From the NCBI GenBank assembly GCA_964387845.1, contig CAYLXA010000003.1:64001-128000 (forward strand): a DNA stretch of 64,000 nucleotides, written 5' to 3'. Shown here in pieces: positions 7,641 to 59,245 of the stretch (position 1 is its first letter; every line of letters begins with the position of its first letter). A program made the translations under genes and the position numbers. This DNA is from an uncultured bacterium. GTDB lineage: Bacteria > Omnitrophota > Omnitrophia > Omnitrophales > Abzuiibacteriaceae. Below the pieces are notes generated by a model, which saw nothing but the letters and a program-made list of their open reading frames with translations, made no database searches and was not told the origin of the DNA.

Positions 7641-7660
7641 GAACAGTATAATAGCGGGCT

Positions 7661-8788
7661 ATGAGCGAACAAAAGCAGGCGATTTTGATTATCGATGACA
7701 GCGAACGCAATGCAGACATGTATTACGCCACGAAATTTATTGCGCCGGATCCTTTCATCTTCATTCAAATCGACGGAAAAAAGACTTTGCTCGCAAGCGA
7801 CCTAGAGCTTGACCGTGCAAAAGATCAATCAATTGCCGATGAAGTGCTTTCCACTTCTGAAATCGCAAAAACCCTGAAAGCAAAAGGTATTGCGCCGAAC
7901 AGCATTGAAATCACCGATTGGGTTTTGAAAAACCGCGGGATTCAGAATATTTTGGTTCCGGCCAGCTTCCCCGTTCAATATGCCGACGCGCTCCGTAAAA
8001 AAAGTTACACGCTTGAATGGAAACGCGATCCTTTTTTTGATGCGCGCGTGATTAAAACAAAAGACGAGATCAAGGCCATCACACAAGCGCTGCGCCATAC
8101 CGAAAATGCGATTCACGCGGCTGTTGAAGTCCTCAAAAAATCCAAAATCAGCGGAAAATATTTGATGTACAAAGGCAAAAAACTGACTTCGGAAGATATT
8201 AAAAAAGTCATTAACGTCAAATTAATGGAAGCGGGCTGCATCGCGGCTCATACAATTATTTCCTGCTTCAATGATTGCGTCGACCCGCACAATCAAGGCT
8301 CGGGGCCTTTATTAGCCAATCAATCGATCATCATGGACGTGTTTCCGCATTCATCCGAAACACGCTATTTCGCGGATATCACACGGACATTCGTGCGCGG
8401 GAAAGCGTCTGATAAATTAAAGCAGATTTATAAGACGGTGAAAGAAGGCCAAGAGATCGCATTCCGCCAAGTGCGAAACGGCGCGGACGGCTCCAAAATT
8501 CATTCCGACATTATGAAATATTTTGAAAGTTTGGGATTCAAAACCGGTGTTCAAGACGGCCGCATGCAGGGATTTTTCCACGGAACGGGCCACGGCGTCG
8601 GAATCGAAATTCACGAGCCGCCGCGGATTTCCGTATCAAAAGACATTCTCAAAACCAACCAAGTCGTGACAGTCGAACCCGGGCTTTATTATTGGAATAC
8701 GGGCGGTGTCCGGCTGGAAGATATGGTTGTCGTTGATGAGAATGGATGTACGAACCTCACCAAATTTCCCAAACAACTTGAAATCTAG
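7661..8788 (+). CDS. pepP: M24 family Xaa-Pro aminopeptidase/dipeptidase
   Basis: Creatinase-like N-terminal domain plus HGTGHGVGIEIHEPP metal-binding motif. Confidence 0.8.
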   Translation: MSEQKQAILIIDDSERNADMYYATKFIAPDPFIFIQIDGKKTLLASDLELDRAKDQSIADEVLSTSEIAKTLKAKGIAPNSIEITDWVLKNRGIQNILVPASFPVQYADALRKKSYTLEWKRDPFFDARVIKTKDEIKAITQALRHTENAIHAAVEVLKKSKISGKYLMYKGKKLTSEDIKKVINVKLMEAGCIAAHTIISCFNDCVDPHNQGSGPLLANQSIIMDVFPHSSETRYFADITRTFVRGKASDKLKQIYKTVKEGQEIAFRQVRNGADGSKIHSDIMKYFESLGFKTGVQDGRMQGFFHGTGHGVGIEIHEPPRISVSKDILKTNQVVTVEPGLYYWNTGGVRLEDMVVVDENGCTNLTKFPKQLEI

Positions 8789-22700: not shown

Positions 22701-25700
22701 TTTTTTCGTTTAGAATCAAAACTGCGTCTTTTAAAAGAACTAAAATATTTAGCAGCGTTTTCTCCTGAAGATCGGATGTGTCTTCAGAACTCATCTTGGT
22801 GCCGATATCCAAAATCAACTTTTGATAAGCATATTGGAGCGCAACATCAGGATACACATTTTTTGTATTGATTAACCAGCTGGTTTCTTCTTGAAATCGA
22901 TCAAGAAGCTCTTGAAATGAATACTTATCCGGCATGTTGTCGACAGGCGCTTGATCAACTAATTGGTCAGCCGCTGATTGAAATGCGCTTGCTATTTGAT
23001 CGTTGTATTCTTTGATTTTCTCTTGATAGAGTTCCTCGGACATTCCTTCCATTTTAAAAGACTCGCCATAGCTCAAAAAACTCATCATCCGGTAGAGCGT
23101 GGAAAGGATTTCCCTATTTCGAGCCTTGATCTGTTTTTCTTCATCCGTGCCCTCGGTTCCCTTGAGAGATTCGATGGCATTATGGATATCTTTAACAATT
23201 CTAGGAATTGGCTGGCCGGCTTTTTCAAGCTGTGTATAAGCATTGGGGTGCGCATACAACTTAAACGCATCGAAATATGAGATTTTTTTGTCCTTCAAAG
23301 ATTCCATCACTAATTTTATTGAATCGGTGTTATATTTAAAAAATTGCCATGTGATTTCTAATGCTTTTGCATCACGCAGACGCCCTTTTTGCTTTAGATC
23401 CCGAATTCTAATTTGAAAATCGAAATTAAAAATATCTAGAATCGCTTTAAAATGTTGCACATCACGTTCGGCAGCTTCAGGGCTAAGAATGGCAGGCTGT
23501 TTAAATTTGCTGCTAAATTTTTCCAAACTCTCTCCTAGCGCTCTGCTCGACCACAAATAGTAAATCTGAAAACCAACGCTATTCACTTTTGATTTAATTT
23601 CTTCTTCAAGAAGATGATCCGCTCTTTTCCCTTCGCTTTCTATTTTTTCCAGAACAGAATCTTTCAATTCGTCTAAAACTTGCAGTAAATTTTTGTTCGA
23701 TTGGTCTTCTTCCAAAATCATCCTGTCTATCTTTTCTGAAAATTTTACCTTTTCGATTCTTATCTTTTCTTGAACATCTGGTTCTTCATCCAAATTCGAT
23801 CTCAACGAATAAGCAGCTGTAAAAAAGTCGTCTGCCTGGAAAAGCATCGTGGTGCCTCGAAATACACGCCGGGCCTGATTTTTATTGCCCTGCATCAGAA
23901 CGGTTCGAAGTTCTGATCTTTTTTCCGATTCGCCTTCGGCATCACTTGTTTTGCTTTTGGATTTTTTCTCTTCGATCATTTCTTCAATGAGATCCAGCAG
24001 ATCTGTTAGTTGAGGGGGCAAAACTCCTTCGATTGCGTCCATGCTCAGCCCTGTATTCGCAATCACTCTTGCGATTATTTCGAGAGCGCTGTTTCCTGTA
24101 GAAACCGGATTTGCATTTATAATTGCCGCTATTTCCTCGTCATTTACTGATTCTTCTTTCGGGTCAAAATAAGAAGCGATTCCGGATTGCGCAGCAGGTT
24201 TTTCGGATTTGTTTTCTGCTGCTTGAGGTTGGGTTTGCGGCTCTGCCGGCTGTGCTGATTTGGCTTTTTCAATGACGAGTTGAAAAAAAGCGTCTCTCTG
24301 GTTTTGCTTTATCGATTTGAATTGATCATTTATAAACTTAGCGAAGGTCGATCCTGCTCTTAAGGGAAATTTATTCACGCTCGGATTCCCTTGTTTATAT
24401 TCGCTTGCCAATGCGCCACTCTTGTTAGCGTCTGTGATAATTGTCCGCTCAATTTCTGTTAGGTTGCCTTCCTTCCCCTCGGCAAGTTTCACAACGCCGG
24501 AAAAAAATGCTTCCACGTTTGCCTGCTGCGTCATATCTGCCGGAACTCCCGCCGCCCAATCGATCAATTTTTGGATTTGCGAATTGACAGCCCGCAATTC
24601 AGAACGATCGTTCTTCTCAGATTGTTGAGAAGGTTGTATAGAAACTGCATACGAGGCCAATTTCGAATCATCAAAATATGCCCTATCAATAAACTTTTCA
24701 AAAGTGGCTTGCCAACCGTCAGGGTTGTAGTAATACTCGGGCAACGATTTTCCTGATTTTGCTTGCACTTCGGATGCAAACCTGAGCAAAGCTTGTTGGA
24801 TAGGAACAAGAAACCGGTTATCAAAATTCTCCGCCGCTGTCCCCGGATTATTTTTGTTGATCAACGCACGCGTATATCCCAATTGCAGCGTCATTAGTTT
24901 CAAAATGTATCTTGATTTTTTCCAGTTCTTATCATTTGCGGCATCACGAAATCTCGATGAATCATAATGAAGGCGCGTTAATGTTGCCGCAAGTGATTCC
25001 GGATATTGATCCCTGGAGACATAGCGGACTTTAAGCCAATCAGATGCAACATCATCTAAAAATACCGAAACAACTCTGTGGGGAGTTTGTTCAATAACAA
25101 CCGACTCTGGATCCTTGAAACCAACCACCCCATTCTCATAAGCAAGATGGCCGACTTCGTGATACACATGATAATCGCTTACCCATTCAAATAACCGTGC
25201 CCTGTCTTCCTTATTTCCAATCTCACCGTGGTGGATAATTTGATGCTGGAGCATTGCCATTCTGAGTGAAATTCGGAGTCTGCGATAAGTTTCGTCATAA
25301 ATTAACGAAAATCCTGTATTGTCAGCCATAGATTCCGAATCTTTCATTTCAGCCGAAAAATTGATAGAGGGTGTCTCTAAAAATTTCTTCAACTCTGCCG
25401 GTAACTTTTCATAACTCTCAGAGGTTCGGCTTATCATCAAAAACGAATCCAAAATCTCTTCCATACTTAAATTGAGCTTCTTGAGTTCGCGATAAATCAT
25501 GATTAGCATAGAAAAAATATTTTGGCTTAATTTGTCAGGAAATTTACTTGTTGAAGATGGGATATAAAGGAATGATGATTGACCGCCTCGATAGGCCGAA
25601 ATAATAACATCAATTGGCCTTGCAAAAAGCCATCTTGAAAAGTAAATAAGCATCACTTGTGTAAGTTTTTTGATTTGAGACAGGTTGGGAAATTCTGGTT

Positions 25701-32147: not shown

Positions 32148-32288
32148 GTAGATTCCTCCGGAAATATGGTTTAGTAACTACTTATGTATCGACTACGCGC
32201 GGAAAATCATTTACTCCAGATTTGAATTTGATACTTAACGGGGAGTATAGTATAGTACTTGACCAATTTCAATAAGGAGATCGGCCGC

Positions 32289-33236
32289 GTGGTTACACAG
32301 CAAAAAACGGGTTCGGTTTTTGACTTACTGGTTAAGAAAATCATGGGTCAATTGATTCAATCGAACTTTCTTAAAAAGCAATCGGTGATCTTGGTTAACG
32401 GGCTTGCCGAACAATACGAAAGCTGGTTTTTCAATGTTGGGCCTCTCGGAAAAGATTTTGTCGTTCATTGGCCGAATTTGTATTGGTACCAGAATGAGGC
32501 TTTTCATCAAGAGATCCGGCAAGTATCTGTCCCGTGGGTCGCTAAAAAACTCGAAAATTATTTAAACAATTACGTACAAACACCTCCTTACAATCTCGTC
32601 GGAAGTTCGAGCGGCTGTCAAACCATCGTTACTTACACGTCTCAAAACCCCCAGTTGGTTTCCAAGCTGATTTTAATATGCCCTTCGGGTTTAGGCGGTG
32701 AGGAAAATCTTCCGATGGTAGACGGTGTCGGCCGGCGCGATCTAGCAGCGCTGATTGGAGCCATTTTTTACGACAAAAAGTTTTATGTTCTGGATGAGAT
32801 CGTTCAGATTTTGAAGGAACGGTTTGACAATCGGAAATGGCGGCAGGGGTTCGTCCGGATGGCGCAAGTCACCAAGCGGAATTCTATTTTAGACAACCTT
32901 GTTCGATTAAAATGCCCGGTTTTATTTATTTGCGGTGAGGAAGACGAAATTGTGCCGACGTGGCAGGCTTACCGGGCCGTAAAAGCAATGCGCGATAACG
33001 GCTGCAATGTGCAAATGATCACATTCCCTAAATGCGGCCACGCACCGCAGATTGAGCGCGCGCAACTGACGAATAAATATATTGCCGATTTCTTGAGGGA
33101 TAAACTTCCAAAGCCGGGTGGGTTCTGGCGTCATCAAGCTGGCGGCCTTCGTCCGTTTGATTTGGATAAAATTGCTCGACAGCATTCCGAAAAACCCACA
33201 AAAACTGGTAAGTCCGCGCTGCCTGTTTTGGTTTAA
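32289..33236 (+). CDS. alpha/beta-fold hydrolase
   Basis: GSSSG nucleophile elbow and late CGHAPQIE His; probable GTG start after SD aaggaga (the track began at an upstream TTG). Confidence 0.7.
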   Translation: MVTQQKTGSVFDLLVKKIMGQLIQSNFLKKQSVILVNGLAEQYESWFFNVGPLGKDFVVHWPNLYWYQNEAFHQEIRQVSVPWVAKKLENYLNNYVQTPPYNLVGSSSGCQTIVTYTSQNPQLVSKLILICPSGLGGEENLPMVDGVGRRDLAALIGAIFYDKKFYVLDEIVQILKERFDNRKWRQGFVRMAQVTKRNSILDNLVRLKCPVLFICGEEDEIVPTWQAYRAVKAMRDNGCNVQMITFPKCGHAPQIERAQLTNKYIADFLRDKLPKPGGFWRHQAGGLRPFDLDKIARQHSEKPTKTGKSALPVLV

Positions 33237-47598: not shown

Positions 47599-47627
47599 TT
47601 GACAAAAAAGCTTTGCTTCATTATATT
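47599..47627 (+). promoter_or_regulatory. sigma70 promoter for the S-box leader
   Basis: TTGACA - 17 nt - TATATT immediately upstream of the riboswitch. Confidence 0.55.
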
Positions 47628-47635
47628 ATCCGCTC

Positions 47636-47806
47636 GTATATCTTCTTATTGCGAGCGGTTGTCTCCATGAAATGCGTGATTTGGAGGCATCTTCGCCCAA
47701 AAGGCGGAGAAATTGAGGGACAGGCCCTATGAAACCGCGGCAACCAATTCGCTCAAAAGCAGGCGAATCCGGTGCCAACTCCTGAGAGCTGATGATTACT
47801 AGAAGC
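47636..47806 (+). ncRNA. SAM-I (S-box) riboswitch
   Basis: cttcttat... ggcggag...gagggacaggccctatgaaaccgcggcaacc...ggtgccaactcctgagagc...agaag matches the SAM-I conserved core (GGNGGAGGGACUGGCCCGAUGAAACCCGGCAACC...GGUGCCAAUUCCUGCA). Confidence 0.75.
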
Positions 47807-47841
47807 CCGGCTCTAAAATAAGGGGAGGAAAAGTTTTGATT

Positions 47842-47880
47842 AAACCTCTTCTTGAATGCTCAAGAAAGAGGTTTTTTTAT
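47842..47880 (+). terminator. riboswitch expression-platform intrinsic terminator
   Basis: aaacctcttcttg-aatgct-caagaaagaggttt followed by tttttatttt, then RBS taggggg and the ATG at 47899. Confidence 0.7.
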
Positions 47881-47898
47881 TTTTAGGGGGTTTTACAA

Positions 47899-49128
47899 AT
47901 GAGTTTTGTCAGAGGCCTTAAGTGCCGCGAATGCGGAAAAATTTACCCGAAGCAGGCGCTCTATGTTTGCGAATTTTGCTTTGGTTCTTTGGAAGTTGAC
48001 TACGATTACGACGCGATTAAAAAAGCCGTCACACGTGAAAAAATCGAAAAAGGCCCCAGGAGCCTTTGGCGCTACAAAGCGCTTCTTCCCATAGACAACG
48101 AACCGACGGTCGGATTTCATTCGGGATTTACGCCGCTCGTGAAAGCCAACCAACTTGCCAAAACTTTGGGTGTTTCCGAGCTGTATATTAAAGACGATAC
48201 CGTTTGCCATCCGACATTTTCATTCAAAGACCGCGTCGTATCCGTTGCGCTCTCGAAAGCCCGCGAGCTCGGTTTCGATACGGTTTCCTGCGCTTCGACC
48301 GGAAACTTGGCGAACTCGGTTGCGGCCCACGCCGCCGCCGCAGGATTGAAGCGCTACATCTTTATCCCTCACGATTTGGAATACGCCAAAGTGCTCGGCA
48401 GTTTGATTTATCAGCCCAATTTAATTGCCGTGAAAGGCAATTATGACGACGTGAACCGGCTTTGTTCTGAAATCGCAGGCAAATACAAATGGGCTTTTGT
48501 GAACGTCAATATTCGCCCTTACTACGCGGAAGGTTCCAAAACTTTCGGATATGAAATAGCCGAACAGCTCGGCTGGAAAACGCCGAAGCATTTAGTCTGC
48601 CCGGCCGCAAGCGGTTCGCTGCTCACCAAAATCTGGAAAGCGTTTAAAGAATTTCACAAACTGGGATTCATCGAAAAACCGGAAACGAAGCTTTATTGCG
48701 CGCAGCCCGAAGGCTGTTCGCCGATTTCGGCTGCGATTAAAAATAAATCGGATGCGATCAAGCCTGTCAAGCCGAACACGATCGCCAAGTCGCTTGCGAT
48801 CGGAAATCCGGCGGATGGTTATTATGCCAAAGATGCCGTTTTGGAATCAGGCGGCGCTTCGATGATCGCCACAGACGATGAAATCCGGGAAGCGATTAAA
48901 CTGCTGGCGCAAACCGAAGGCATTTTCACGGAAACCGCGGGCGGCGTTACGGTTGCGTGCGCGAAAAAATTGATCGAACAGGGCGTCATTCCAAAAAATG
49001 AATCCATTGTGATTTCAATCACCGGAAACGGGCTCAAAACACAAGGCGCCATCCGGGATTCTGTCGGAGAGCCATCAATGATCGAGCCGAACTTAAAATC
49101 ATTTGAATCGATTCTGAACAAAAAATAA
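47899..49128 (+). CDS. threonine-synthase-family PLP enzyme with N-terminal zinc ribbon (ThrC, or MetM-like homocysteine synthase)
   Basis: CRECG...CEFCFGSL ribbon; SFKDR PLP-lysine motif; fold-type II PLP core. Confidence 0.8.
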   Translation: MSFVRGLKCRECGKIYPKQALYVCEFCFGSLEVDYDYDAIKKAVTREKIEKGPRSLWRYKALLPIDNEPTVGFHSGFTPLVKANQLAKTLGVSELYIKDDTVCHPTFSFKDRVVSVALSKARELGFDTVSCASTGNLANSVAAHAAAAGLKRYIFIPHDLEYAKVLGSLIYQPNLIAVKGNYDDVNRLCSEIAGKYKWAFVNVNIRPYYAEGSKTFGYEIAEQLGWKTPKHLVCPAASGSLLTKIWKAFKEFHKLGFIEKPETKLYCAQPEGCSPISAAIKNKSDAIKPVKPNTIAKSLAIGNPADGYYAKDAVLESGGASMIATDDEIREAIKLLAQTEGIFTETAGGVTVACAKKLIEQGVIPKNESIVISITGNGLKTQGAIRDSVGEPSMIEPNLKSFESILNKK

Positions 49129-49165
49129 CGTATACTATCCAGACTTCACAAGGAGACAATAAATC

Positions 49166-49447
49166 ATGGCTGTCAAAGTAAGAATCCCGACACCTTTGCA
49201 AAAACTCACCAAAGATCAAGAAGAAGTAGAGTTAAAAGCAGCTTCTATTAAAGAAATGATTAACAGCCTTGAAAAACAATTCCCCGGAATCAAAGACCGG
49301 CTTTGTGATGAATCCGGCAACATCCGCCGCTTCGTCAACATTTTCCTCAACGAAGAAGACATTCGCTTCTTGAATAAAGAAGAAACTGTTTTGAAAGACG
49401 GCGATGAAGTTTCGATTGTCCCCGCAATTGCCGGAGGCGCAAGGTAA
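49166..49447 (+). CDS. MoaD/ThiS-family sulfur-carrier protein with GG-AR C-terminus
   Basis: 93 aa beta-grasp-like; ends ...SIVPAIAGGAR, i.e. Gly-Gly plus two extra residues. Confidence 0.6.
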   Translation: MAVKVRIPTPLQKLTKDQEEVELKAASIKEMINSLEKQFPGIKDRLCDESGNIRRFVNIFLNEEDIRFLNKEETVLKDGDEVSIVPAIAGGAR

Positions 49448-50430
49448 TGACGGTCACCACAAGCTTGATCGGTGACTTACGGGACCGCGTGCTGTTGGGC
49501 GGTGAAATTACGCGCGAAGAAGCGTGTTCATTAATTGAAATTCAGGATGAACAGCTTTTAAACGAACTCGTCAACGCCGCTCACGAAATTACGGTTTTCT
49601 TCAATTCCGAGCAGGCTCACCTTTGCTCGCTCATCAACGCAAAAAGCTATCTTTGCAGTGAAGACTGCGGATTTTGTTCCCAATCGACTCATTTTAAAAC
49701 CGAAGCCTCGCGCTACGAATTGCTCTCGGCAGATGAGATCGTCAAATCCGCGAAAAATGTAGAAGCACAAGGGATCGAAAATTTCTGTATCGTGACAAGC
49801 GGCGGTTCTTTAAATGAAAAGGAGTTTGAGCATATCATCGAAGCGGTTAAACGCTTGAAAGCCGAAACCAAACTCAACATTGACGGCTCGCTTGGTTTTC
49901 TGACGCCTGAACGCGTCGAAAAATTGAAAGAAGCCGGTATGCGGCGCTTCAACGATAATTTACAGTCCTCACGCGAATTTTATAACAAGATCGTTTCCAC
50001 ACATTCCTATGATAAACGTCTTGAGACCTTGGATTTCCTGCGCCAGGGTGATATGGATTTGTGTTCGGGCGGTATTTTCGGCATGGGCGAAACACGCGAA
50101 GACCGCGTGAATATGGCATTTGAACTAAAACGTTTTACGCCCGAATGCGTTCCGGTTAATATTTTAAATCCCCGGCCCGGGACACCGCTTGAGAATGCGC
50201 CCAAAATTGACCCGATGGAAGTTGTCAAAGCCATCGCGGTTTACCGCTTCATCCTTCCTAAATCCAATATTAAACTCGCCGGCGGCCGCGAAATTAATTT
50301 GGGTGAATTTCAAAAACTTGCTTTAAAAGCCGGTGCCAATGGCCTTGTCTCGGGCGGTTACCTCACAACAGGCGGAAACTCCTTCGACACCGACAAGGCC
50401 ATGCTCAAAGAAGCCGGTTACGACGTTTAG
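49447..50430 (+). CDS. bioB: biotin synthase
   Basis: CSEDCGFCSQS radical-SAM triad; YNHNL-like, CSGGI.G.GET and NILNPRPGTPLE blocks collinear with E. coli BioB; TAATG start/stop overlap with the carrier gene. Confidence 0.85.
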   Translation: MTVTTSLIGDLRDRVLLGGEITREEACSLIEIQDEQLLNELVNAAHEITVFFNSEQAHLCSLINAKSYLCSEDCGFCSQSTHFKTEASRYELLSADEIVKSAKNVEAQGIENFCIVTSGGSLNEKEFEHIIEAVKRLKAETKLNIDGSLGFLTPERVEKLKEAGMRRFNDNLQSSREFYNKIVSTHSYDKRLETLDFLRQGDMDLCSGGIFGMGETREDRVNMAFELKRFTPECVPVNILNPRPGTPLENAPKIDPMEVVKAIAVYRFILPKSNIKLAGGREINLGEFQKLALKAGANGLVSGGYLTTGGNSFDTDKAMLKEAGYDV

Positions 50431-50441
50431 CTTTCCTTTCG

Positions 50442-51170
50442 ATGGAAGTTTCTCTCGCTGGAAAAACCATTTTAATCACCGGCGGAACAAGCGCGCTGGG
50501 ATCCGAATTCGTTAAACGAGCGCTCAAAGAAAATGCCAAAATTTTCTTCACCTACTACACGAATGAAACCAAAGCCCGCGAACTTTCGGATTTGGGCGCA
50601 ATTGGTTTTAAAATCGACCTGTCAAAAATTGCTGAAATCAAATCTCTGGCTGCACAACTAAAAGCCCATACAAACGCGCTTGATGGCTTAATCAACAATG
50701 CTGCGTCCGTTAAAGACAGGACGGTTCAAAATATGTCGGATGAAGAATGGGATGAAGTGTTAAACACCGATCTAAAAGCAGCTGCTTTTATGGTCAAAGA
50801 AATGCTCCGATTTTTATTTAAAAAGAAACCGAGCAAAATTTTAAATGTGATCAGCCGCGTCGGTGTTCAAGGCGCTTTCGGCCAGGCCAATTACGCGGCG
50901 GCAAAAGGCGGACTGATTTTGCTCACGAAAAGCCTGGCCAAAGAACTCGGGAAAAAGAAAATTCTGATCAATGCTCTCAATCCCGGATTCATGAAATCCA
51001 AAATGACAGACGTGCTGCCTGCTGAGGTTATTGAGCGCAACCGACATGAAAGCGTCTTGGATGAAATCTCGAATCCTGAAGAAGCCGCGGATTTTATGAT
51101 TTATTTAATGTCGGACAAAATGACGCTTGTGAGCGGCCAAATTTTTAACATCGAGTCGAGATTGCGATGA
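50442..51170 (+). CDS. SDR-family 3-oxoacyl-ACP reductase-like
   Basis: ITGGTSALG Rossmann motif, NYAAAKGG (YxxxK). Confidence 0.75.
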   Translation: MEVSLAGKTILITGGTSALGSEFVKRALKENAKIFFTYYTNETKARELSDLGAIGFKIDLSKIAEIKSLAAQLKAHTNALDGLINNAASVKDRTVQNMSDEEWDEVLNTDLKAAAFMVKEMLRFLFKKKPSKILNVISRVGVQGAFGQANYAAAKGGLILLTKSLAKELGKKKILINALNPGFMKSKMTDVLPAEVIERNRHESVLDEISNPEEAADFMIYLMSDKMTLVSGQIFNIESRLR

Positions 51171-52363
51171 ATCGTGTTGTGGTTACCGGCATCGGCTGCG
51201 TAGCGCCCATCGGAAATAATCAAAAAGAGTTCGCCAAAAACCTGAGCGAAGGAAAATCGGGAGCTGGGCCAATTTCAAAATTTGACACGTCAAACTTCCC
51301 CGTTAAAAAAGCGTTTGAAGTCCGTTCGTTCTCACCTGTGCCCGCTTCTAAAGCGCTCGATCCTTTCATTCAATACGGCCTCACAGCCGCTGAAGAAGCG
51401 ATTCGGGACAGCAAGCTCGATATTCCATCGATGGACCCTTATCGAGTTGGAATCGCGGTTAGTTCCAGCAAAGGCGGCATGACAACGCTCGAAAAATTCC
51501 GTGATCGATTCTTGAAACGGCCAAGCGCGCTTCTCGGAGCCCGGATTTACGCCAATACCGTTCCGAATATTTTGTCGCAGTGGATCGCGAGGCGTTGGGA
51601 ACTCAAAGGCCCCGCAAAACCTGCCGTGGCAGCCTGCGCAACCGGAACTTACGCAATTATTGAGGGCATCCGGATGATCGAGGATGATGAAACGGATGTC
51701 TGCATCGCCGGCGCAAGCGATGCGTCGATCACCAAACTAATGCTTGCCGGATATCACCAAATGGGCGTTCTTTCACCGAACGGTGTTTCTCCGTTTGATA
51801 AAACGCGCGGCGGATTTTTGGTCGGTGAAGGCGCGGGTGTTGTTATTTTAGAAAAGGAAAACCACGCGAAAGCCAGACATGCACAAATTTACGGGCGGAT
51901 TTTGAGCCATACATACGGAAATGAATGCCGGCACTTAATTTCGTTTCCGGTTGAAAGCGACGGCCTTTCATCGACGCTTATGCGGTCTATCAAAAGTGCT
52001 AATATTACGCCTTGTGACATTGATTCGCTTCAACTCCACGGAACCGCAACAGTTTCCGGTGATTTATATGAAACCGCCCAAATTAAAAAAGCATTTGGCA
52101 AGGATGCTTACAAGATTTCGATGAGCGCCATCAAATCCATGATCGGACACACGGCCGGTGCGGCAGGCGCTTTTTCATTTATCGCAAACTTGCTTTCGCT
52201 GCGCGACCAAATCATTCACCCGACGATTAATTTGAATTCGCCGGATGCCGAATGCGATTTAGACTATACGCCTTGTTATTCTAAAAAGAAAAAAATTAAA
52301 GTCGCCGGTTCGATCAGCATGGGTTTCGGCGGCCACATTGGGGCTATTTTGGTGGGAAAATGA
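51167..52363 (+). CDS. beta-ketoacyl-ACP synthase I/II-like
   Basis: Active-site Cys (AACATG), HGTAT and IGHTAGAAGA His motifs. Confidence 0.8.
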   Translation: MNRVVVTGIGCVAPIGNNQKEFAKNLSEGKSGAGPISKFDTSNFPVKKAFEVRSFSPVPASKALDPFIQYGLTAAEEAIRDSKLDIPSMDPYRVGIAVSSSKGGMTTLEKFRDRFLKRPSALLGARIYANTVPNILSQWIARRWELKGPAKPAVAACATGTYAIIEGIRMIEDDETDVCIAGASDASITKLMLAGYHQMGVLSPNGVSPFDKTRGGFLVGEGAGVVILEKENHAKARHAQIYGRILSHTYGNECRHLISFPVESDGLSSTLMRSIKSANITPCDIDSLQLHGTATVSGDLYETAQIKKAFGKDAYKISMSAIKSMIGHTAGAAGAFSFIANLLSLRDQIIHPTINLNSPDAECDLDYTPCYSKKKKIKVAGSISMGFGGHIGAILVGK

Positions 52364-53508
52364 AAACCGATCAGGAATTTTCCAGTATTTCAGAAGAACT
52401 TCAATTCTTAAAAGATAGTCATCTGTTCCGAAAATTAAGAACCCTGGAAAGCATTGACTCGACTCATGTGTTATTAAATGGGAAAAAGGTTTCTTTGTTT
52501 TGTCATAACGACTACCTGGGCCTAAGCAAACACCCTGATGTTGCAGAAGCCTTCTCACAAGGTGTCCGTGATTTTGGCGCCGGCTCGGGCGCTGCGCGGC
52601 TCATCACCGGCAATACAACCGTATTTGAAAAATTAGAAGAGCGTCTCGCCCAGTTTAAGAAAAAAGAACGCGCACTTCTGTTTTCGACCGGTTATTTGGC
52701 TAATCTCGGCATCATCTCGGCCTTTTGCGAGAAAGAGGATGTTGTGATTGTCGATAAGCTTAATCACGCTTCAATCATTGATGCCTGCAAGCTTTCGGGC
52801 GCAACCATTCGTGTTTATCCGCACAAAGATTTGGATTATTTGGAGAAAATTCTCAAGCAATCTGATCGATTCCGAAGAAAATTAATCGTTACGGATTCTG
52901 TTTTCAGCATGGACGGCGACTTGGCCCCGCTGCCTGAAATTGTAAAGCTTAAGAACCGCTACGGCGCTTATTTAATGATTGATGAAGCGCATGGAACCGG
53001 CGTTTTTGGAAAGTCAGGACGCGGAGCAGCGGAATATTTGAACGTAGAGGATGAAATCGACATTTCGATGGGAACTTTGTCAAAAGCGTTTGGGACGCAC
53101 GGCGGATTTGTGGCGGGGAGTTCTGAGCTCATCGAATTTTTAATCAACCGGAGCCGTAGTTTTATATTCTCAACCGCCCTTCCGCCCGCGGTTTGCGCGG
53201 CAAGCTTGAAATCGTTGGAATTAATCGAACAAAAGCCGGAGCTAAGAGATCGTTTGTGGAAAAATATTAAAAGCACGGTAGACAACCTAAAACTTTCCGG
53301 CACTTCACCGATTATCCCTGTCATGATTGGCGATGAGCAAAAAGCGATGAATTTATCCGAAAAACTACTCGAAAACAGCATTTTGATCCCGGCAGTTCGG
53401 TATCCGACAGTCCCTAAAAAATCCGCGCGTCTTCGCTTAACTGTTTCGGCTGCTCACAGCCAAAGCGACCTGGAAACCCTGATTTCTACACTTAAAAAAC
53501 ACCTTTAA
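52360..53508 (+). CDS. bioF: 8-amino-7-oxononanoate synthase (alpha-oxoamine synthase family)
   Basis: Class II aminotransferase; GTLSKAFG PLP lysine; in the bioB cluster. Confidence 0.7.
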   Translation: MKTDQEFSSISEELQFLKDSHLFRKLRTLESIDSTHVLLNGKKVSLFCHNDYLGLSKHPDVAEAFSQGVRDFGAGSGAARLITGNTTVFEKLEERLAQFKKKERALLFSTGYLANLGIISAFCEKEDVVIVDKLNHASIIDACKLSGATIRVYPHKDLDYLEKILKQSDRFRRKLIVTDSVFSMDGDLAPLPEIVKLKNRYGAYLMIDEAHGTGVFGKSGRGAAEYLNVEDEIDISMGTLSKAFGTHGGFVAGSSELIEFLINRSRSFIFSTALPPAVCAASLKSLELIEQKPELRDRLWKNIKSTVDNLKLSGTSPIIPVMIGDEQKAMNLSEKLLENSILIPAVRYPTVPKKSARLRLTVSAAHSQSDLETLISTLKKHL

Positions 53509-53520
53509 CCCCTAATTTTC

Positions 53521-53549
53521 TCGACATTCGTTTTTTGCATCGATATAAT
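53521..53549 (+). promoter_or_regulatory. sigma70-like promoter
   Basis: TCGACA - 17 nt - TATAAT upstream of the small secreted protein gene. Confidence 0.4.
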
Positions 53550-53606
53550 GACGTCCTTGCTTCACATAACTCTCAAGAGATTCCACGCAGAAGACGAAAC
53601 TTACTC

Positions 53607-53975
53607 ATGATGACAAAACGATTTTGGATTAGCTTAACTGCATCTATTTTCTTATTCGCAAGCATCCCTGCTTCGGCAAATCCTGTCCTGCAAACCTTAA
53701 GCGGACTTGTGCTTTCGGTCAATTTAAATACCAGCCAGCTTCATGTCAAATTCGAACATCCTGTGACCGGTGAAAGCGAATTGAAAATTTTTGATGTCGA
53801 CAATAGGACCGGATTTAAACATGTGAAGGGTCTTAATCAAATCAAGCCGCAAGATCCGGTGAGTATTGATTACGAAGAAAAAACGCCGGATCAATTAAAA
53901 GCCGTTTACATCGAAGTTGTCCGTCTCAATGATGTTCCTTTTACCAAGGAACAAATTCAAAAAGCAATTCTTTAA
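53607..53975 (+). CDS. small secreted protein
   Basis: Signal peptide MMTKRFWISLTASIFLFASIPASA; start moved to the internal Met. Confidence 0.4.
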   Translation: MMTKRFWISLTASIFLFASIPASANPVLQTLSGLVLSVNLNTSQLHVKFEHPVTGESELKIFDVDNRTGFKHVKGLNQIKPQDPVSIDYEEKTPDQLKAVYIEVVRLNDVPFTKEQIQKAIL

Positions 53976-53999
53976 TCTTCCGCTGTACTTGAAATATCC

Positions 54000-54863
54000 A
54001 TGAAGTGTTTTCTGGTTTTTTTTCTAGCTTTCCTTCTTCTGAATACACCGCTCGGATTTTCCGAATCAAATCCCGATACCGAAGCCGATGCTTTGATTCA
54101 AGAGGCAAACCGCTTGATGGCTGAGCGGCAATGGGACACTTCGGCTGAAAAATATGAAGAAGCGCTTAAACTGAACCCTGATTTGACCGAAGCGTTGTTT
54201 GGTTTGGGGTTAATTGCCGAAACAGAAAATGATTTCAACGCAGCGCATGATTATTTTCGCTCTGTCATTCAGCGGAATCCAAGGCATGTAGATTCGCTTT
54301 TTCATTTGGGCGCTATCGCTTATTCACGCGAGCAGCCCTCCGAAGCGCGCGATTATTTCCGGCTCGCAGCCGAATCCAGCCCGAATATGATTCCCGCCCA
54401 TTACAATTTGGGCCTTTGTTATACTGAACTTTATGAACTTGAAAAAGCCCGCGAATCTTTTAAGCAGGCTATTATTTTGGACGCTAAAAATCCGTGGCCT
54501 TTTTACCAAATCGGAAGGACTTACGAAATGCAGGGTTTTGCGCGGGAAGCCAGAATGGGATATGAGGAAGCGTTGAAATTAAACCCAAATTTTCCCGAAG
54601 CACGGGAAGGTTTTGAACGGCTCTCCGGCATCAATCCGGCAAGAGGAGAAGATTCAATCGGTGAAATGCGGCAGAAAGCCAATCGGCAGGTTTCATTGAT
54701 CGGCGGGTCTTTCGGAAGCGGGGGTTTTAAACCGGTGACGCCCCTTGATTCATTCCGCGATTTGGCTTACCCGGCTCAATCTACCAACAACAAGGCAATG
54801 CTCATGCAGCTTGGCGCTCAACTTGTCCAAGGATTTGTAAACTCCCGGCGCCAGCAAAGTTAA
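54000..54863 (+). CDS. secreted TPR-repeat protein
   Basis: Signal peptide plus 5-6 TPR units (W-LG-Y-A-F-A-P spacing). Confidence 0.7.
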   Translation: MKCFLVFFLAFLLLNTPLGFSESNPDTEADALIQEANRLMAERQWDTSAEKYEEALKLNPDLTEALFGLGLIAETENDFNAAHDYFRSVIQRNPRHVDSLFHLGAIAYSREQPSEARDYFRLAAESSPNMIPAHYNLGLCYTELYELEKARESFKQAIILDAKNPWPFYQIGRTYEMQGFAREARMGYEEALKLNPNFPEAREGFERLSGINPARGEDSIGEMRQKANRQVSLIGGSFGSGGFKPVTPLDSFRDLAYPAQSTNNKAMLMQLGAQLVQGFVNSRRQQS

Positions 54864-54865
54864 AT

Positions 54866-54960
54866 TTCAAATATCAAAATCTAAATATCAAAACAAATTC
54901 AAAAGTTCAATATTAAATACTTTTGAATTTTGATATTTGAGTTTTGAATTTAAACTTACA
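54866..54960. repeat. AT-rich palindromic repeat family 3 copy (bidirectional terminator-like)
   Basis: tcaaatatcaaaatctaaatatcaaaa...ttttgaattttgatatttgagttttga between convergent TPR and fabI genes. Confidence 0.55.
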
Positions 54961-55771
54961 TGCCCATTATTCTATAACCGGCATCCACATAAATAATTTC
55001 GCCGGTAATACCGCTTGAAAGCGGGCTTAGAAGAAAAAGCGCCGTGTTCCCCACTTCTTCGACCTCGATATTCCGGCCAAGCGCAGCTTTTTGGCGGTGA
55101 ATTTCGAGCATTTTCGTAAATCCCGAAATACCGCGCGCCGCCAGCGTATTGACAGGCCCTGCGGAAACTGCATTCACACGGATATTTTTTTTACCAAGCT
55201 CGGAAGCTAAATAACGAACGCCGGATTCGAGGCTTGCTTTTGCCATTCCCATCACGTTGTAATGCGGAACGGCTTTTTCAGAGCCCAAATACGTGAGTGC
55301 TAAAATACTGCCGCCTTCCTTCTCCATCAAAGGCTCAGCTGCCTTTGCAAGCGCCAAAAGCGAATAGGCGCTTACATCTTGCGCAAGATGAAACCCTTCG
55401 CGGGAAGTGTCAATGGTGCGGCCTTCCAAGTCTTCTTTTTTGGCAAACGCGATGCAATGTACCAAAAAATGCAGCGCGCCGAATTCTTCTCCGATGCGGC
55501 CGAAAACATTCTTAATTTCGTCATCTTTTGTCGCATCACAAGGAAGAACCAGCGATTTTTGAGACAAAGTCGCGGTCAACTCTTCGACGCCTTCTTTCAA
55601 GCGCTCGCCCTGGTACGTAAATGCCAATTGTGCGCCGTGATTGGCAAGCGCTTGCGAAATCGCCCACGCGATGCTGCGTTTATTGGCAACGCCGACAACC
55701 AATCCCTTTTTCCCGGCCAAAAGATTGGAGGTGAACGCCGGTTTTTTGTTTTCGGTTTGTGGTAATGACAT
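54956..55771 (-). CDS. fabI: enoyl-ACP reductase (NADH)
   Basis: LAGKKGLVVGVANKRSIAWAI N-terminus and Y-x6-K catalytic spacing of FabI. Confidence 0.8.
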   Translation of the reverse strand: MSLPQTENKKPAFTSNLLAGKKGLVVGVANKRSIAWAISQALANHGAQLAFTYQGERLKEGVEELTATLSQKSLVLPCDATKDDEIKNVFGRIGEEFGALHFLVHCIAFAKKEDLEGRTIDTSREGFHLAQDVSAYSLLALAKAAEPLMEKEGGSILALTYLGSEKAVPHYNVMGMAKASLESGVRYLASELGKKNIRVNAVSAGPVNTLAARGISGFTKMLEIHRQKAALGRNIEVEEVGNTALFLLSPLSSGITGEIIYVDAGYRIMGM

Positions 55772-55870
55772 AAATTAATTCCTCCTATTTTATAGATCCT
55801 TTCCGCCACAAAACTTTGGCGGACCTGCCGCGATTTATGGCGGGCGCTACGCTCTCAGAATGACAGTAAA

Positions 55871-57049
55871 TTACGACGTCACTTTCGACCGCATAGCTTC
55901 GATTAAAATTTCAGCAACTTCGGGCCGCGTGATTTCAATCGGCGGAATTTCACCGTTCCGAAGCATTTCGCGAAGCTTTGTGCCCGAAACGTTAAAAGCA
56001 TCTGCATTCGGCGGCGCGGTTTTAAAACTTACCATTCCGCCTGTCTTTTTATCAAAAAATGTGTGTTCAAATTTGAAAAGCTCGATTCCGATATCCTTCG
56101 GATCAAACTTATCGAAAATAAGCTGCGCATCATAGGAACCATAATAAGACTTTCCGTCCGGTTTGCTTGCGCCTGCGTGGTCACGGCCGACGATAAAATG
56201 CGTGCAGCCGTAGTTTTTACGCACAATCGCGTGCCACACGGCTTCGCGCGGCCCCGCGTAACGCATCGCGGCAGGAAATACGGCTAGTATTGAGCGGTCT
56301 TTCGGATAATATTTGTCGAGAAGCACTTGATAACATTTCATACGCACATCGGCCGGAACATCGTCGCCTTTTGTCTGCCCGACCAGCGGATGAATTAAGA
56401 GGCCGTCTACACATTCAAGCGCCACTTTTGTTAAATATTCATGCGCGCGATGAATCGGATTACGCGTTTGGAAAGCAACAATAGTGCGCCAATTGCGTTT
56501 CTTGAATTCTTCACGGGTTTCGGCGGGGCTTAAACGATATTCCGTAAAATCTTTGTGTTTCGGCTGATTAAATAACGAAACCTTGCCCCCGACAAGCCAG
56601 TTGCCCATGAGCCCGATTTGGACATTGCCGGGATGTGCAGCATCATCCGTTCCGTAGAGCAGCATTGAATGTTTCTGCTTGTCGTGTTTATAAATACCTT
56701 CGATTTCTAAAATCGCAAGCGGGTGGCCTGAAGCATCTTTCAGCGCAACTTCCTTTTGGTTTGCCACTTTTGATTTTTCATCATCCGTCAGAGACTTGAC
56801 GACCGGAATTGTCCAAGGAAGACCGCTTGTTAAAACTAAATTATCCAGACAGGAATTAAAATCATCTTCACTCATGAAGCCATCCAACGGACTCATGGCG
56901 CCGGATGCGATCATTTCAAGATCACAGAGTTCGCGCTCAGATAGCGCAAGCGCAACTAGCTTGCTTGCTTTGCTTTCCGCTTCGTCGCGTTTCTTGCCTT
57001 TTAATTCACGGTTAATTAAGGTTCCGCCGTGTGCTGCAATGCTACTCAT
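55871..57049 (-). CDS. sat: sulfate adenylyltransferase (homo-oligomeric Sat type)
   Basis: QTRNPIHRAHE and HFIVGRDHAG motifs. Confidence 0.85.
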   Translation of the reverse strand: MSSIAAHGGTLINRELKGKKRDEAESKASKLVALALSERELCDLEMIASGAMSPLDGFMSEDDFNSCLDNLVLTSGLPWTIPVVKSLTDDEKSKVANQKEVALKDASGHPLAILEIEGIYKHDKQKHSMLLYGTDDAAHPGNVQIGLMGNWLVGGKVSLFNQPKHKDFTEYRLSPAETREEFKKRNWRTIVAFQTRNPIHRAHEYLTKVALECVDGLLIHPLVGQTKGDDVPADVRMKCYQVLLDKYYPKDRSILAVFPAAMRYAGPREAVWHAIVRKNYGCTHFIVGRDHAGASKPDGKSYYGSYDAQLIFDKFDPKDIGIELFKFEHTFFDKKTGGMVSFKTAPPNADAFNVSGTKLREMLRNGEIPPIEITRPEVAEILIEAMRSKVTS

Positions 57050-57819
57050 ATATCACTTCCCCCGTCTGTTGATTTGTCTGCTTTTTCTGTTTTTGCCGAA
57101 GGTTTCGGTTTCATGAATGTATGAAGGCCGCATTCGGTTTTATCTTTGCCTGCCCAGCGGCCCGAACGTTCGTCATCGCCCGGCTGAACTGGTTTCGTGC
57201 ACGGCCAGCAGCCGATGCTTAAATATCCTTTTTCAAAAAGCGCGTGAATCGGCAGTTTGTGCTCTTTGATGTACCACCAAATGTCGCCTGAGGTGACATT
57301 GGCAAATGGGTTGATTTTATAAAGACCGCCTTCATATTCTTCAACAATCTGGATTTCTTTGCGTGTCTTGGATTGTGAGCGGCGGATCCCGGAAATCCAG
57401 GCATCGAGGCCCTTCAAAGCTTCCTGCATAGGCTCTACTTTGTTAATTTGGCAGCAAAGATCCGGATTTTTTTCGTAGGGTTTCCCGTCATAATCCTTCA
57501 CCAATTGTTCCCGGCGCTTGGGGTCCGCTCTTAAGTCAACCACGTTGGTCAATTTGAGCCTGTCTGTAACCAATTTTTTGAAATCAAGCGTTTCCTGAAA
57601 ATGAAAACCGGTCTCAAGAAAGAAGATTTTAATCACGGGATCAATTTTGGAAACCATGTCGAGAAGGACGATGCTTTCGGTCTGAAATGAGGAGCTCACG
57701 GCAATCTTTGGGCGAAATTCTTCAATCGCCCAGCGCAGAATCACCTGCGGCTGTTCTTTTTCAAACTTTTCGTTTAATGCCGCTAAATCCAGCTTTTTAC
57801 TCACCAGCATGCCTTTCAA
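57046..57819 (-). CDS. cysH: adenylylsulfate/phosphoadenylylsulfate reductase
   Basis: PAPS-reductase fold, ECGLH C-terminal motif, plus a CC...CxxC cluster (SIGCWPCT) typical of APS reductases. Confidence 0.8.
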   Translation of the reverse strand: MKGMLVSKKLDLAALNEKFEKEQPQVILRWAIEEFRPKIAVSSSFQTESIVLLDMVSKIDPVIKIFFLETGFHFQETLDFKKLVTDRLKLTNVVDLRADPKRREQLVKDYDGKPYEKNPDLCCQINKVEPMQEALKGLDAWISGIRRSQSKTRKEIQIVEEYEGGLYKINPFANVTSGDIWWYIKEHKLPIHALFEKGYLSIGCWPCTKPVQPGDDERSGRWAGKDKTECGLHTFMKPKPSAKTEKADKSTDGGSDI

Positions 57820-58697
57820 GATTCCTTCGTGTTTAACCGCAAACGCAAACGATCGATCGTGTCATAATACAAACAAGCGCCTTCGCCCATCCAGCCCAAA
57901 TCAACATTGGGCCGGTTATCGCCGTGAAAATCGCTGCCGCCGGTTGTAATGAGACTGAATCGATCCGCTACTTTCTTATAATAAGAAGCTTCTTCCCTGG
58001 ACTGGCAGCTCGAAAATACTTCCATGCCGTCTAGGCCTTGATCGACAAGCTTTGAAATTTCCGTTTCAAATTCCTTTTCGCCTTTTAATTTCAGCTGCTT
58101 CGGATGCGCCAAAGAAGCCACACCGCCTGCCGCATGAATCATCCGGATCGCGGTTTCGCTTGTGATGTTGCGCTTATCCACATAAGCCGGGGCGCCTTTT
58201 GCCAAAAAGCGGTTGAACGCATCCTGCGAATCTTGCGCGTAGCCTTTTTTGACCAGCACGCGCGCAAAATGCGGCCGGCCGATTTGATCACCGCCCGACT
58301 CTGCGGCAACTTCATCCAGCGTGATTTTAACGCCAAGCTTGCCCAATTTTTCAATGATCTGCGGATTGCGCTTTGAGCGCGCATCCTGAACTAATTTCAA
58401 ACCACTCAACAACTCTTGATTCGCCGTGTTGATGAAATAGCCGAGAATATGCATCGTACCCGGCGGAAAAATGACGCTGATCTCAACGCCGGCAATTACT
58501 TCAACGCCCAGCTTTGCGCCGGCGTCTTTCGCTTCGCGCACGCCGCTCACCGTATCATGATCGGTAAGCGCGATGCAATCTACCCGGCGCGACTTTGCAC
58601 GCGCAACCAGCTGTTCGGGCGTTAAGGTGCCGTCTGAATGCGTGGTATGCATATGCAAATCCACGCGCTTCAGAAATTTTTCTTCGGAAGAAATCAC
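57816..58697 (-). CDS. PHP-family phosphoesterase, probable 3',5'-bisphosphate nucleotidase (pAp phosphatase)
   Basis: [12 protein letters not shown]...ALTDHDT PHP motifs; embedded in the sulfate-activation operon with 4-nt overlaps. Confidence 0.55.
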
Positions 58698-59245
58698 TTT
58701 GCGGCTGCCAATTCGTCCTGTGTCACAAACCCAAGCTCTTCTAACTTCTGGAGAACTCTTTCGGCGGATTGTTCCGGCGTTTCTTTGTGAGTTTCACAAA
58801 CCACTTCGGCACTCAGCGGCTCTTCGTAAGGATCGTCAACACCTGTGAAACCTTTTATTTCTCCGGCCATGGCTTTTTTATAAAGCCCTTTGGTATCGCG
58901 CTCTGCGCAAGTCTCAAGCGGGCATTTCGCGTAAACCTCGATAAAATTTCCGATCAAAGAACGGTTATAATCGCGCACTTCGCGGTACGGCGAAATCGCG
59001 GCCGACAAAACAATGACGTCGTTGCGCGTGAGCAAATCGCAAACAAAACCGATGCGCTTGATATTGGTATCGCGGTCTTCTTTTGAAAACCCGAGCCCTT
59101 TGCTAAGATTGGTACGGACAACATCGCCGTCCAAAATTTCCACTTTACGGCCTGCTTTTTTGAGCCGTTTCTCAACAATTCGAGCGATGGTTGACTTGCC
59201 AGAACCCGATAAACCGGTAAACCATACTGTGACACCTTTTGACAT
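58694..59245 (-). CDS. cysC: adenylylsulfate kinase
   Basis: [17 protein letters not shown]-loop and the APS kinase core. Confidence 0.85.

Follow-up and report, generated by a model that had tools for sequence, protein, structure and literature searches.

A sulfur-carrier gene overlapping bioB in an uncultured Omnitrophota bacterium probably marks the junction of a SAM-controlled homocysteine module and a biotin cluster with its own ketoacyl synthase and ketoreductase

Results

Organization of the locus

In this study, a window of 64,000 nucleotides from an uncultured Omnitrophota bacterium (assembly GCA_964387845.1, contig CAYLXA010000003.1, positions 64,001 to 128,000 of the forward strand) was analysed, with attention to the plus-strand genes at 47.6-53.5 kb, where the gene for a small sulfur carrier runs into the biotin synthase gene bioB. 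Named homologues and related contigs agree with a placement in Omnitrophota. Every open reading frame (ORF) of at least 70 amino acids in the window was annotated with Pfam and NCBIfam models. Behind a leader with a S-adenosylmethionine (SAM) riboswitch lie the gene for a ThrC-like pyridoxal-phosphate (PLP) enzyme with an N-terminal CxxC...CxxC zinc ribbon (47899..49128; Pfam PALP, TIGR00260) and that for the carrier, a CysO/MetO-type protein of 93 amino acids with a ThiS/MoaD fold and the C-terminus ...AIAGG-AR (49166..49447; Pfam ThiS, TIGR01687). The biotin genes come next: bioB, of an Omnitrophota subtype (49447..50430; TIGR00433); a FabG-like short-chain dehydrogenase/reductase (SDR) gene, for whose product we propose the role of a 3-oxo-(omega-carboxy)acyl-acyl carrier protein (ACP) reductase (50442..51170; Pfam adh_short/KR); a gene for a FabF-like ketoacyl synthase (KAS), a KAS II paralogue proposed to be the condensing enzyme of pimelate synthesis (51167..52363; Pfam ketoacyl-synt N and C, TIGR03150); and bioF, encoding 8-amino-7-oxononanoate synthase (52360..53508; TIGR00858).

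An earlier, sequence-only reading of this DNA had noticed a TAATG overlap between the carrier stop and the bioB start and a tightly packed bioB-SDR-KAS-bioF operon, and both were confirmed. The overlap, read off the sequence, lies at 49443..49447: the carrier gene ends with GCC GGA GGC GCA AGG TAA, and the ATG of bioB shares the last A of this TAA. The GGAGG formed by the Gly-Gly codons of the carrier stands 9 nt 5' of the bioB ATG and resembles a Shine-Dalgarno sequence for bioB. bioB and the SDR gene are 11 nt apart, and the SDR/KAS and KAS/bioF junctions are 4-nt ATGA overlaps. In the whole window 11 of 39 same-strand adjacent ORF pairs overlapped and about 92% of the sequence was coding, so that the carrier/bioB overlap is weak evidence of a special link between the two genes. 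Most likely it reflects co-transcription and tight packing at the junction of two modules.

Distribution of the carrier gene and the bio cluster

A survey built on a BioB alignment, with one genome per species, gave 75 loci, including 60 non-redundant loci with an Omnitrophota-type BioB. The carrier gene was found upstream of bioB in 34 of these 60, and the ThrC-like gene directly preceded it in 32 of the 34; one of the two exceptions had no upstream sequence, and the pairing thus held in 32 of 33 informative loci. The pair usually formed the tail of a run of genes for adenosine 5'-phosphosulfate (APS) kinase, a PHP phosphatase, 3'-phosphoadenosine 5'-phosphosulfate (PAPS) reductase, ATP sulfurylase and CysK, and in many relatives the CysK gene lay directly 5' of the ThrC-like gene. 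In 25 of the 60 loci no carrier gene occurred within at least 3 kb upstream, yet BioB was of this same subtype and the order bioB-SDR-KAS-bioF was unchanged. Many of these carrier-free loci had a conserved backbone in which a ROK-family gene (u1) directly precedes bioB, and in two further loci CysK led directly into bioB.

The distance between carrier and bioB was variable among the 34 loci: nine had at most 10 nt, six had 11-110 nt and the other 19 had over 110 nt. A gene for a NIL-domain protein (family u6, about 80 amino acids; e.g. L018 9730-9987), absent from the window, stood between the two in 17 loci. NIL domains are linked to methionine uptake and to archaeal homocysteine synthesis. 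The spacer of about 240 nt between carrier and bioB in many relatives was considered as a regulatory region and rejected, since the alignment showed it to be the NIL-domain gene. The bio genes themselves kept their order: SDR and KAS followed bioB in 56 of the 60 loci, their position between bioB and bioF was fixed in about 50 species, and in the relatives bioF came after KAS and was itself usually followed by bioA-bioD. Together with the unchanged ligand residues of BioB described below, the carrier-free loci, the variable gaps and the intervening NIL gene indicate that the sulfur module behaves as if inserted or deleted next to a bio module that is independent of it.

The SAM riboswitch leader

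The leader begins with a promoter-like site, TTGACA-17-TATATT (47599..47627, plus strand), recognized by consensus match alone at 11 of 12 positions. It is followed by a divergent copy of the SAM-I (S-box) riboswitch aptamer (47690..47830), which matched Rfam RF00162 over 47707-47817 with 38 bits and an E-value of 3.7e-7 and was found only with the E-value threshold. A homologous element occupies the same place before the ThrC-like gene in the related locus L004 (6566-6654), where it reached 70.6 bits; the riboswitch copies of the window, L001 and L004 are tied to each other by nhmmer at an E-value of about 1e-25. The L004 copy is flanked by the genes for the sulfurylase and the ThrC-like enzyme, and it has a TTGACA...TATAGT site on its 5' side and a terminator. 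In the window, an intrinsic terminator hairpin with a U-tract (47842..47886) would form the expression platform; its folding energy is -16.5 kcal/mol (z = -4.4 versus shuffles), and L004 is arranged alike. By eye, an antiterminator may form through pairing of AAGGGGAGG (47820-47828) with CCUCUUCUU (47846-47854). No recognisable internal promoter was found between the riboswitch and the bio genes in the window lineage.

The ThrC-like enzyme and the carrier

The ThrC-like enzyme scored 276 bits on the TIGR00260 thrC model and its top PDB matches were threonine synthases, whereas its score on the cysteate synthase model, 71 bits, was far below the cut-off of 325. The carrier scored 64 bits on Pfam ThiS and 53 bits on the MoaD family model TIGR01687 (cut-off 49.5), and its top PDB matches were the CysO proteins of Amycolatopsis (4n6e_B, 72 bits) and Mycobacterium tuberculosis (3dwg_C, 66.5 bits); structures of MoaD, SAMP or ThiS type reached at most 36 bits. 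In the window and in L001 the carrier ends with Gly-Gly plus two residues (Ala-Arg), whereas in L004-L006 it ends exactly at Gly-Gly, indicating that the tail is a local feature of the lineage bearing the overlap. The CysK-like protein of the relatives passed the cysK cut-off, fitted cysK better than cysM, and scored 217 bits on the CapA model (cut-off 600).

A similar gene pair has been described in Streptomyces albulus, in which MetM, which is homologous to ThrC and in many cases misannotated as threonine synthase, and the carrier MetO convert O-phosphohomoserine into homocysteine with the help of Mec and MoeZ (Hasebe et al., 2024, as cited in 10.1101/2024.10.14.618325 and PMC12172450); a SAM riboswitch is reported upstream of S. 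albulus metM (PMC12172450). Our locus shares with it a ThrC homologue beside a small Gly-Gly sulfur carrier, the upstream SAM riboswitch, and carrier residues beyond Gly-Gly, so that trimming should be needed here as well. It differs in that no Mec or MoeZ gene is nearby and in the surroundings of the pair, which here runs into a biotin operon and has sulfate-assimilation genes as neighbours. The closest solved relatives of the carrier, CysO of M. tuberculosis with its partner CysM (3dwg) and Amycolatopsis CysO with BexX (4n6e), are likewise systems in which a thiocarboxylate carrier feeds a dedicated sulfur-transfer partner, but the partner at this locus is ThrC-like and not CysM. We therefore propose by analogy that the ThrC-like enzyme is a MetM-type homocysteine synthase, and gene pairing and homology place the carrier functionally with this upstream gene, not with bioB.

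BioB has an unusual set of auxiliary-cluster residues

The BioB of the window scored 381 bits on TIGR00433 (cut-off 225), has the radical-SAM CxxxCxxC motif and a BATS domain, and was closer to the Type II structures 8vdw and 8vcw (274 and 231 bits) than to E. coli 1r30 (172 bits). The residues at the auxiliary site are Ser/Cys/Cys/Cys/Arg in Type I and Cys/Ser/Cys/Cys/Arg in Type II enzymes (PMC10813225). At these positions (E. coli 43/97/128/188/260) the window protein has C60/C114/D146/C206/K276, and this Cys/Cys/Asp/Cys/Lys set was common to about 64 related BioBs (L001-L079), with Asp at 128 and Lys at 260 in every Omnitrophota-type BioB examined. It departs from Type I ([2Fe-2S]; Cys97/Cys128/Cys188/Arg260) by Asp at 128 and Lys at 260, and from Type II ([4Fe-5S]; Cys43/Ser97/Cys128/Cys188) by reading Cys/Cys/Asp/Cys. 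Judging from these residues, the Omnitrophota BioB may represent a third mode of coordinating the auxiliary cluster. The pattern was the same with or without an adjacent carrier gene.

KAS, SDR and BioF

BioF scored 473 bits on TIGR00858, above the cut-off of 426, and failed the cut-offs of the KBL, SPT and ALAS models. By model score the alpha-oxoamine synthase is thus BioF, as had been supposed before, and another acyl-amino product is unlikely. The two enzymes between BioB and BioF were less canonical. The top PDB matches of the KAS were FabF proteins, but it reached only 368 bits on the FabF model TIGR03150 (cut-off 494); the SDR matched FabG best (TIGR01830, 188 bits against 298) and stayed under all FabG cut-offs. 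A FabB encoded in the same metagenome-assembled genome (MAG) as L047 passed its own cut-off with 657 bits against 630, indicating that these low scores are not just phylum-wide divergence and that the bio-cluster KAS is not the sole elongating KAS of that genome.

In an alignment of 50 Omnitrophota KAS sequences, to which E. coli FabF was added for numbering only, the Cys-His-His triad (C157/H291/H328) and the gate F387 (the Phe400 gate of FabF) were kept. The back gate was altered. In FabF this gate is made of Ile108, a highly conserved residue, and Phe202, and it meets the acyl chain at about C7-C8 (PMC9006962). Here Ile108 was replaced by Lys102 and Phe202 by Tyr196 in 50 of 50 sequences, and Phe132 by Arg126 in 91% of them, so that the KAS neither retains the FabF back gate nor reaches the FabF cut-off. 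We infer that the Lys/Tyr/Arg cluster would suit the terminal carboxylate of a glutaryl, possibly a malonyl, chain. A search for KAS representatives was dominated by giant polyketide synthases and left 16 usable stand-alone proteins. The motif SSSKGG was carried by 13 of them, which come from separate 50%-identity clusters; the other three are 37-42% identical to the KAS of the window and have GSGIGG or GTGVGG there. The SDR keeps the Ser138/Tyr151/Lys155 triad. Among 51 SDR sequences, conserved Arg residues were found at E. coli FabG positions 139 (90%), beside the catalytic Ser, and 240 (98%), near the C-terminus.

Among the ORFs of the 64-kb window, the Pfam and NCBIfam models detected no BioC, BioH, BioW, BioI, BioZ, bioA or bioD, and the previous remark on the missing bioC/H/W/I/Z genes holds within this window. 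Its only alpha/beta hydrolase (32259-33236) was OlsI-like (267 bits, OlsI cut-off 385) and scored 25 bits on BioH. No ACP or FabZ-like gene was seen among the recurrent or intervening gene families of the relatives that were run against Pfam. In a diverged relative, L084, a BioU-like gene after KAS (7545-8537; 382 bits, cut-off 600) replaces bioA-bioD. At L060, which lacks bioA, a gene for a 324-residue protein with a NAD-binding-type domain (10959-11933) lies between bioB and bioF; to call it BioU-like is a guess. Two methyltransferase genes follow bioF at L083 (12370-13689), the first with BioC as its top NCBIfam match (68 bits, cut-off 185). On the strength of cluster conservation and altered active sites, the view that SDR and KAS are dedicated biotin-cluster enzymes for the pimelate precursor is supported in outline.

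Discussion

A two-module explanation

The best explanation of our data is probably that two separate modules, a SAM-controlled homocysteine-forming pair and an Omnitrophota biotin cluster with a pimelate-building KAS and SDR, stand end to end and have become one transcription unit in this lineage, the overlap being the outcome of compaction. The genes, their synteny across loci, the riboswitch and the residue substitutions are observed, and the enzyme activities, the KAS substrate and the regulatory outcome are our interpretation. In the first module, the promoter-like site, SAM-I riboswitch and terminator would control the ThrC-like enzyme and the CysO-type carrier, and SAM would turn the unit off through transcription termination. 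By analogy with MetM/MetO, the carrier would first lose its Ala-Arg tail and would then be adenylated and thiocarboxylated at Gly-Gly, after which the ThrC-like enzyme would convert O-phosphohomoserine and the carrier thiocarboxylate into homocysteine. In the second module, bioB-SDR-KAS-bioF would be complemented by bioA-bioD elsewhere in the genome. An omega-carboxyacyl chain, either glutaryl or, for a first round, malonyl, would be attached to Cys157 of the KAS. Where FabF has its hydrophobic back gate, Lys102, Tyr196 and Arg126 would bind the free carboxylate of this chain, and the enzyme would join the chain to malonyl-ACP. The Arg-bearing SDR would reduce the 3-oxo product, housekeeping FabZ and FabI, the latter perhaps from the adjoining gene, would complete the round to pimeloyl-ACP, and BioF would then use pimeloyl-ACP and alanine. 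The overlap of carrier and bioB would be a by-product of genome compaction where the modules meet.

Several observations weigh against this explanation. On the sulfur side, the carrier gene of L008 (6527-7812) immediately precedes bioB, and the 6.5 kb upstream of it contain no ThrC-like gene. This locus is the sole informative exception to the pairing, and a glycosyltransferase-like gene takes the place of the ThrC-like gene there. Neither an E1-like enzyme (MoeZ) nor a JAMM protease (Mec) was among the window ORFs, and the likeness to S. albulus MetM/MetO is one of gene arrangement and riboswitch. The window copy of the riboswitch scores under the Rfam gathering score of 44.4; among 13 further related loci scanned, a SAM riboswitch was found in L004 only, and none in the more distant ThrC-like/carrier loci. 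As carrier and bioB adjoin and no terminator parts them, SAM would be expected to control the bio genes as well, and the logic of such control is not obvious. A search for BirA operators found none in the window or in the main SDR/KAS-bearing Omnitrophota group; BirA-type operators (TTGTNAACC-N14-16-GGTTNACAA) stand just 5' of bioB in the outgroups L060, L061, L063, L072 and L073. Concerning pimelate, bioB and bioF of the window have no ACP or dehydratase (FabZ-like) gene between them or next to them, and the search for separate FabF/FabG and BioC/BioH genes covers the 64-kb window only. A KAS with the SSSKGG lysine, P0211 (L082 10001-11197), is encoded outside any bio cluster. This gene follows prmC on a 4.5-Mb contig. 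Residue numbering follows E. coli FabF, FabG and BioB, and for BioB it is consistent with HMMER alignments to PDB chains. Finally, CysD and CysN/C (a CysN/APS-kinase fusion) genes are inserted between SDR and KAS in seven loci, which leaves room for some functional tie between sulfur supply and the bio cluster, although a simpler view is that of synteny conserved in very compact genomes. The loci with this insertion are L015, L017, L018, L038, L039, L044 and L047 (e.g. L018 11781-14518).

Alternative explanations

The overlap had earlier been taken to suggest that the carrier supplies or regenerates the sulfur inserted by BioB; its thiocarboxylate would reload the auxiliary cluster, and translational coupling would set the stoichiometry. 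There is something in favour of this: the TAATG overlap is genuine, the carrier gene lies upstream of bioB, directly or across the NIL gene alone, in the 34 loci counted above, and at L008 it stands beside bioB in the absence of the ThrC-like gene. The BioB ligands are non-canonical too, and the sulfur source of BioBs other than Type I is open, a published hunt for a missing factor having been unsuccessful (PMC10813225). However, the carrier co-varies with the ThrC-like gene and not with BioB, whose subtype and cluster persist in the 25 carrier-free loci; the NIL gene often separates the two genes, and the overlap is not conserved. Furthermore, the carrier is CysO-like, of a family that serves PLP sulfhydrylases, the SAM riboswitch points to methionine synthesis, and overlaps are frequent in the window. 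Sequence comparison thus offers this idea no support beyond adjacency, and we regard it as very unlikely. About as improbable is a broader version, in which the carrier thiocarboxylate, fed by the sulfate-assimilation genes, would be the physiological sulfur source of a third kind of BioB with Cys/Cys/Asp/Cys/Lys in Omnitrophota and the intermixing of sulfur and bio genes would reflect a real link.

For KAS and SDR, the two-module explanation has to be compared with three other possibilities. It is unlikely that they are the elongation enzymes of a methyl-ester (BioC-type) route whose methyltransferase and esterase are encoded elsewhere. The methyltransferase genes at L083 would fit such a route, but the BioC score of the first falls far short of its cut-off, no such gene occurs in the window or in the cluster interiors that were checked with Pfam (most flanking genes elsewhere were sorted only into unnamed families), and the Lys/Tyr/Arg pocket should fit a free carboxylate better than a methyl ester. 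Still less likely, in our view, KAS and SDR are the housekeeping FabF and FabG sited in the bio operon, with pimelate made by a canonical route elsewhere. Their nearest structures and models are FabF and FabG, their catalytic residues are intact, and no fab cluster is available for comparison within the window, to which the gene survey was confined. Against this stand scores well under the FabF/FabG equivalog cut-offs (an Omnitrophota FabB, from the MAG of L047, passes its own), the fixed placement from bioB to bioF in about 50 species, and the invariant Lys/Tyr pair with the Arg at the gate, which should hinder long acyl chains if the gate works as in FabF (PMC9006962).

The least probable of these possibilities, in fact hardly credible, is that the alpha-oxoamine synthase, KAS and ketoreductase make another acyl-amino product, as the sequence-only reading had also suggested, e.g. 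a capnine-like sulfonolipid for which the ThrC-like enzyme would form cysteate from the sulfite of PAPS reductase. The locus does encode a PLP beta-replacement enzyme together with an alpha-oxoamine synthase and an SDR, and sulfate-activation genes are near. Presumably this set resembles the capnine pathway. However, the synthase behaves as BioF and fails the SPT and KBL cut-offs, the scores on the cysteate synthase and CapA models are far below their cut-offs while the CysK-like protein of the relatives passes as cysK, bioA-bioD or a BioU-like gene follow in relatives (bioA-bioD in most of them), and 25 species have the cluster but not the sulfur module.

Comparison with known biotin pathways

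The two-module explanation finds its closest precedent in Desulfovibrio, whose bio operon contains FabF-, FabG- and FabZ-like and ACP genes that were proposed in 2004 to make the pimeloyl thioester (Rodionov, PMC545781) and that fitness data in 2023 showed to be needed for biotin-free growth (Trotter, PMC10102598). Like the present cluster, D. vulgaris DVU2558-DVU2565 comes from an anaerobe, places FabF-like and FabG-like genes between bioB and bioF, lacks bioC, bioH and bioW (here within the window only), and has been proposed to elongate a dicarboxylate thioester to pimeloyl-ACP. The concept of a dedicated KAS/ketoreductase route is therefore not new: the earlier suggestion that the FabF-like/FabG-like pair makes pimeloyl-ACP gains from the cluster conservation and active-site changes. 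The two operons are not the same, however, since that of Desulfovibrio also has a dedicated ACP, two FabZ-like genes and a required nitroreductase-like protein, none of which occurs in the Omnitrophota cluster. Omnitrophota are not among the phyla reported for the Desulfovibrio-type pathway (PMC10102598), and two homologue searches, the second from a GC-rich member, returned Omnitrophota-type relatives and one TA06 relative only. The possible counterparts of KAS and SDR in D. vulgaris are DVU2563 and DVU2561. Likened by gene content, the Omnitrophota cluster is a reduced two-gene variant of the extended bio operon of Desulfovibrio. Alpha-proteobacterial BioZ follows a comparable logic, in which a dedicated condensing enzyme joins a glutaryl-CoA primer to malonyl-ACP (PMC7645780, PMC8024396), giving 3-oxopimeloyl-ACP that fatty-acid enzymes finish. 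BioZ is a FabH-like KAS III, whereas the Omnitrophota KAS is a KAS II with the Cys-His-His triad, both ketoacyl-synt domains of KAS I/II and FabF as its top PDB matches, and it has its own ketoreductase.

Pimelate synthesis without BioC/BioH, BioW, BioI or BioZ is biochemically unsettled, and the evidence on the Desulfovibrio pathway consists of fitness data alone. The Omnitrophota cluster narrows the candidate machinery to two genes. In its KAS, Lys102, Tyr196 and Arg126, and in its reductase two Arg residues, could account for the acceptance of a carboxylate-ended chain by an enzyme of fatty-acid type, and with these residues named the question becomes open to complementation and mutagenesis. 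In addition, the gene overlap with a sulfur carrier is removed as a false lead to the sulfur donor of BioB, and a BioB subtype whose auxiliary-cluster ligands match neither described type is flagged.

Neighbouring genes and other observations

Downstream of bioF a promoter-like site, a gene for a small secreted protein and a gene for a TPR protein follow. The 146-residue ORF after bioF was considered as a pathway enzyme and rejected, as it encodes this small secreted protein and has its own promoter-like site. A convergent gene on the minus strand (54956..55771; Pfam adh_short_C2, 301 bits) encodes a FabI-like enoyl-ACP reductase, a possible helper of the pathway; it scored 349 bits on the NCBIfam FabI model (cut-off 370) and adjoins the cluster in the window, L001 and L004 only. 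Further on, also on the minus strand, lie the sulfate-assimilation genes for ATP sulfurylase, the PAPS reductase CysH, a PHP-type bisphosphate phosphatase and APS kinase (55871..59245). They make up the other half of the sulfur module and, in L004 and the majority of relatives, immediately precede the ThrC-like gene on its own strand. Comparison of the window and L001 with L004 (window 47899-59245, L004 3158-14739) revealed an inversion, by which they came to lie downstream of the ThrC-like-to-FabI block on the opposite strand, and the isc operon, divergent from the unit, now stands upstream of the riboswitch leader. By gene order, the window appears to be a compacted, partly inverted form of the L004 arrangement.

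At gathering thresholds, Rfam reported no RNA gene or element, tRNA included, in the whole 64-kb window. A giant ORF of 5503 amino acids on the minus strand (10732-27243) had PEP-utilizers_C and asparaginase as its only recognised domains; giant ORFs are a known trait of Omnitrophota (PMC10066038). A 519-residue protein, also on the minus strand (3552-5111), gave two ThyX (Thy1) matches and is apparently a duplicated flavin-dependent thymidylate synthase.

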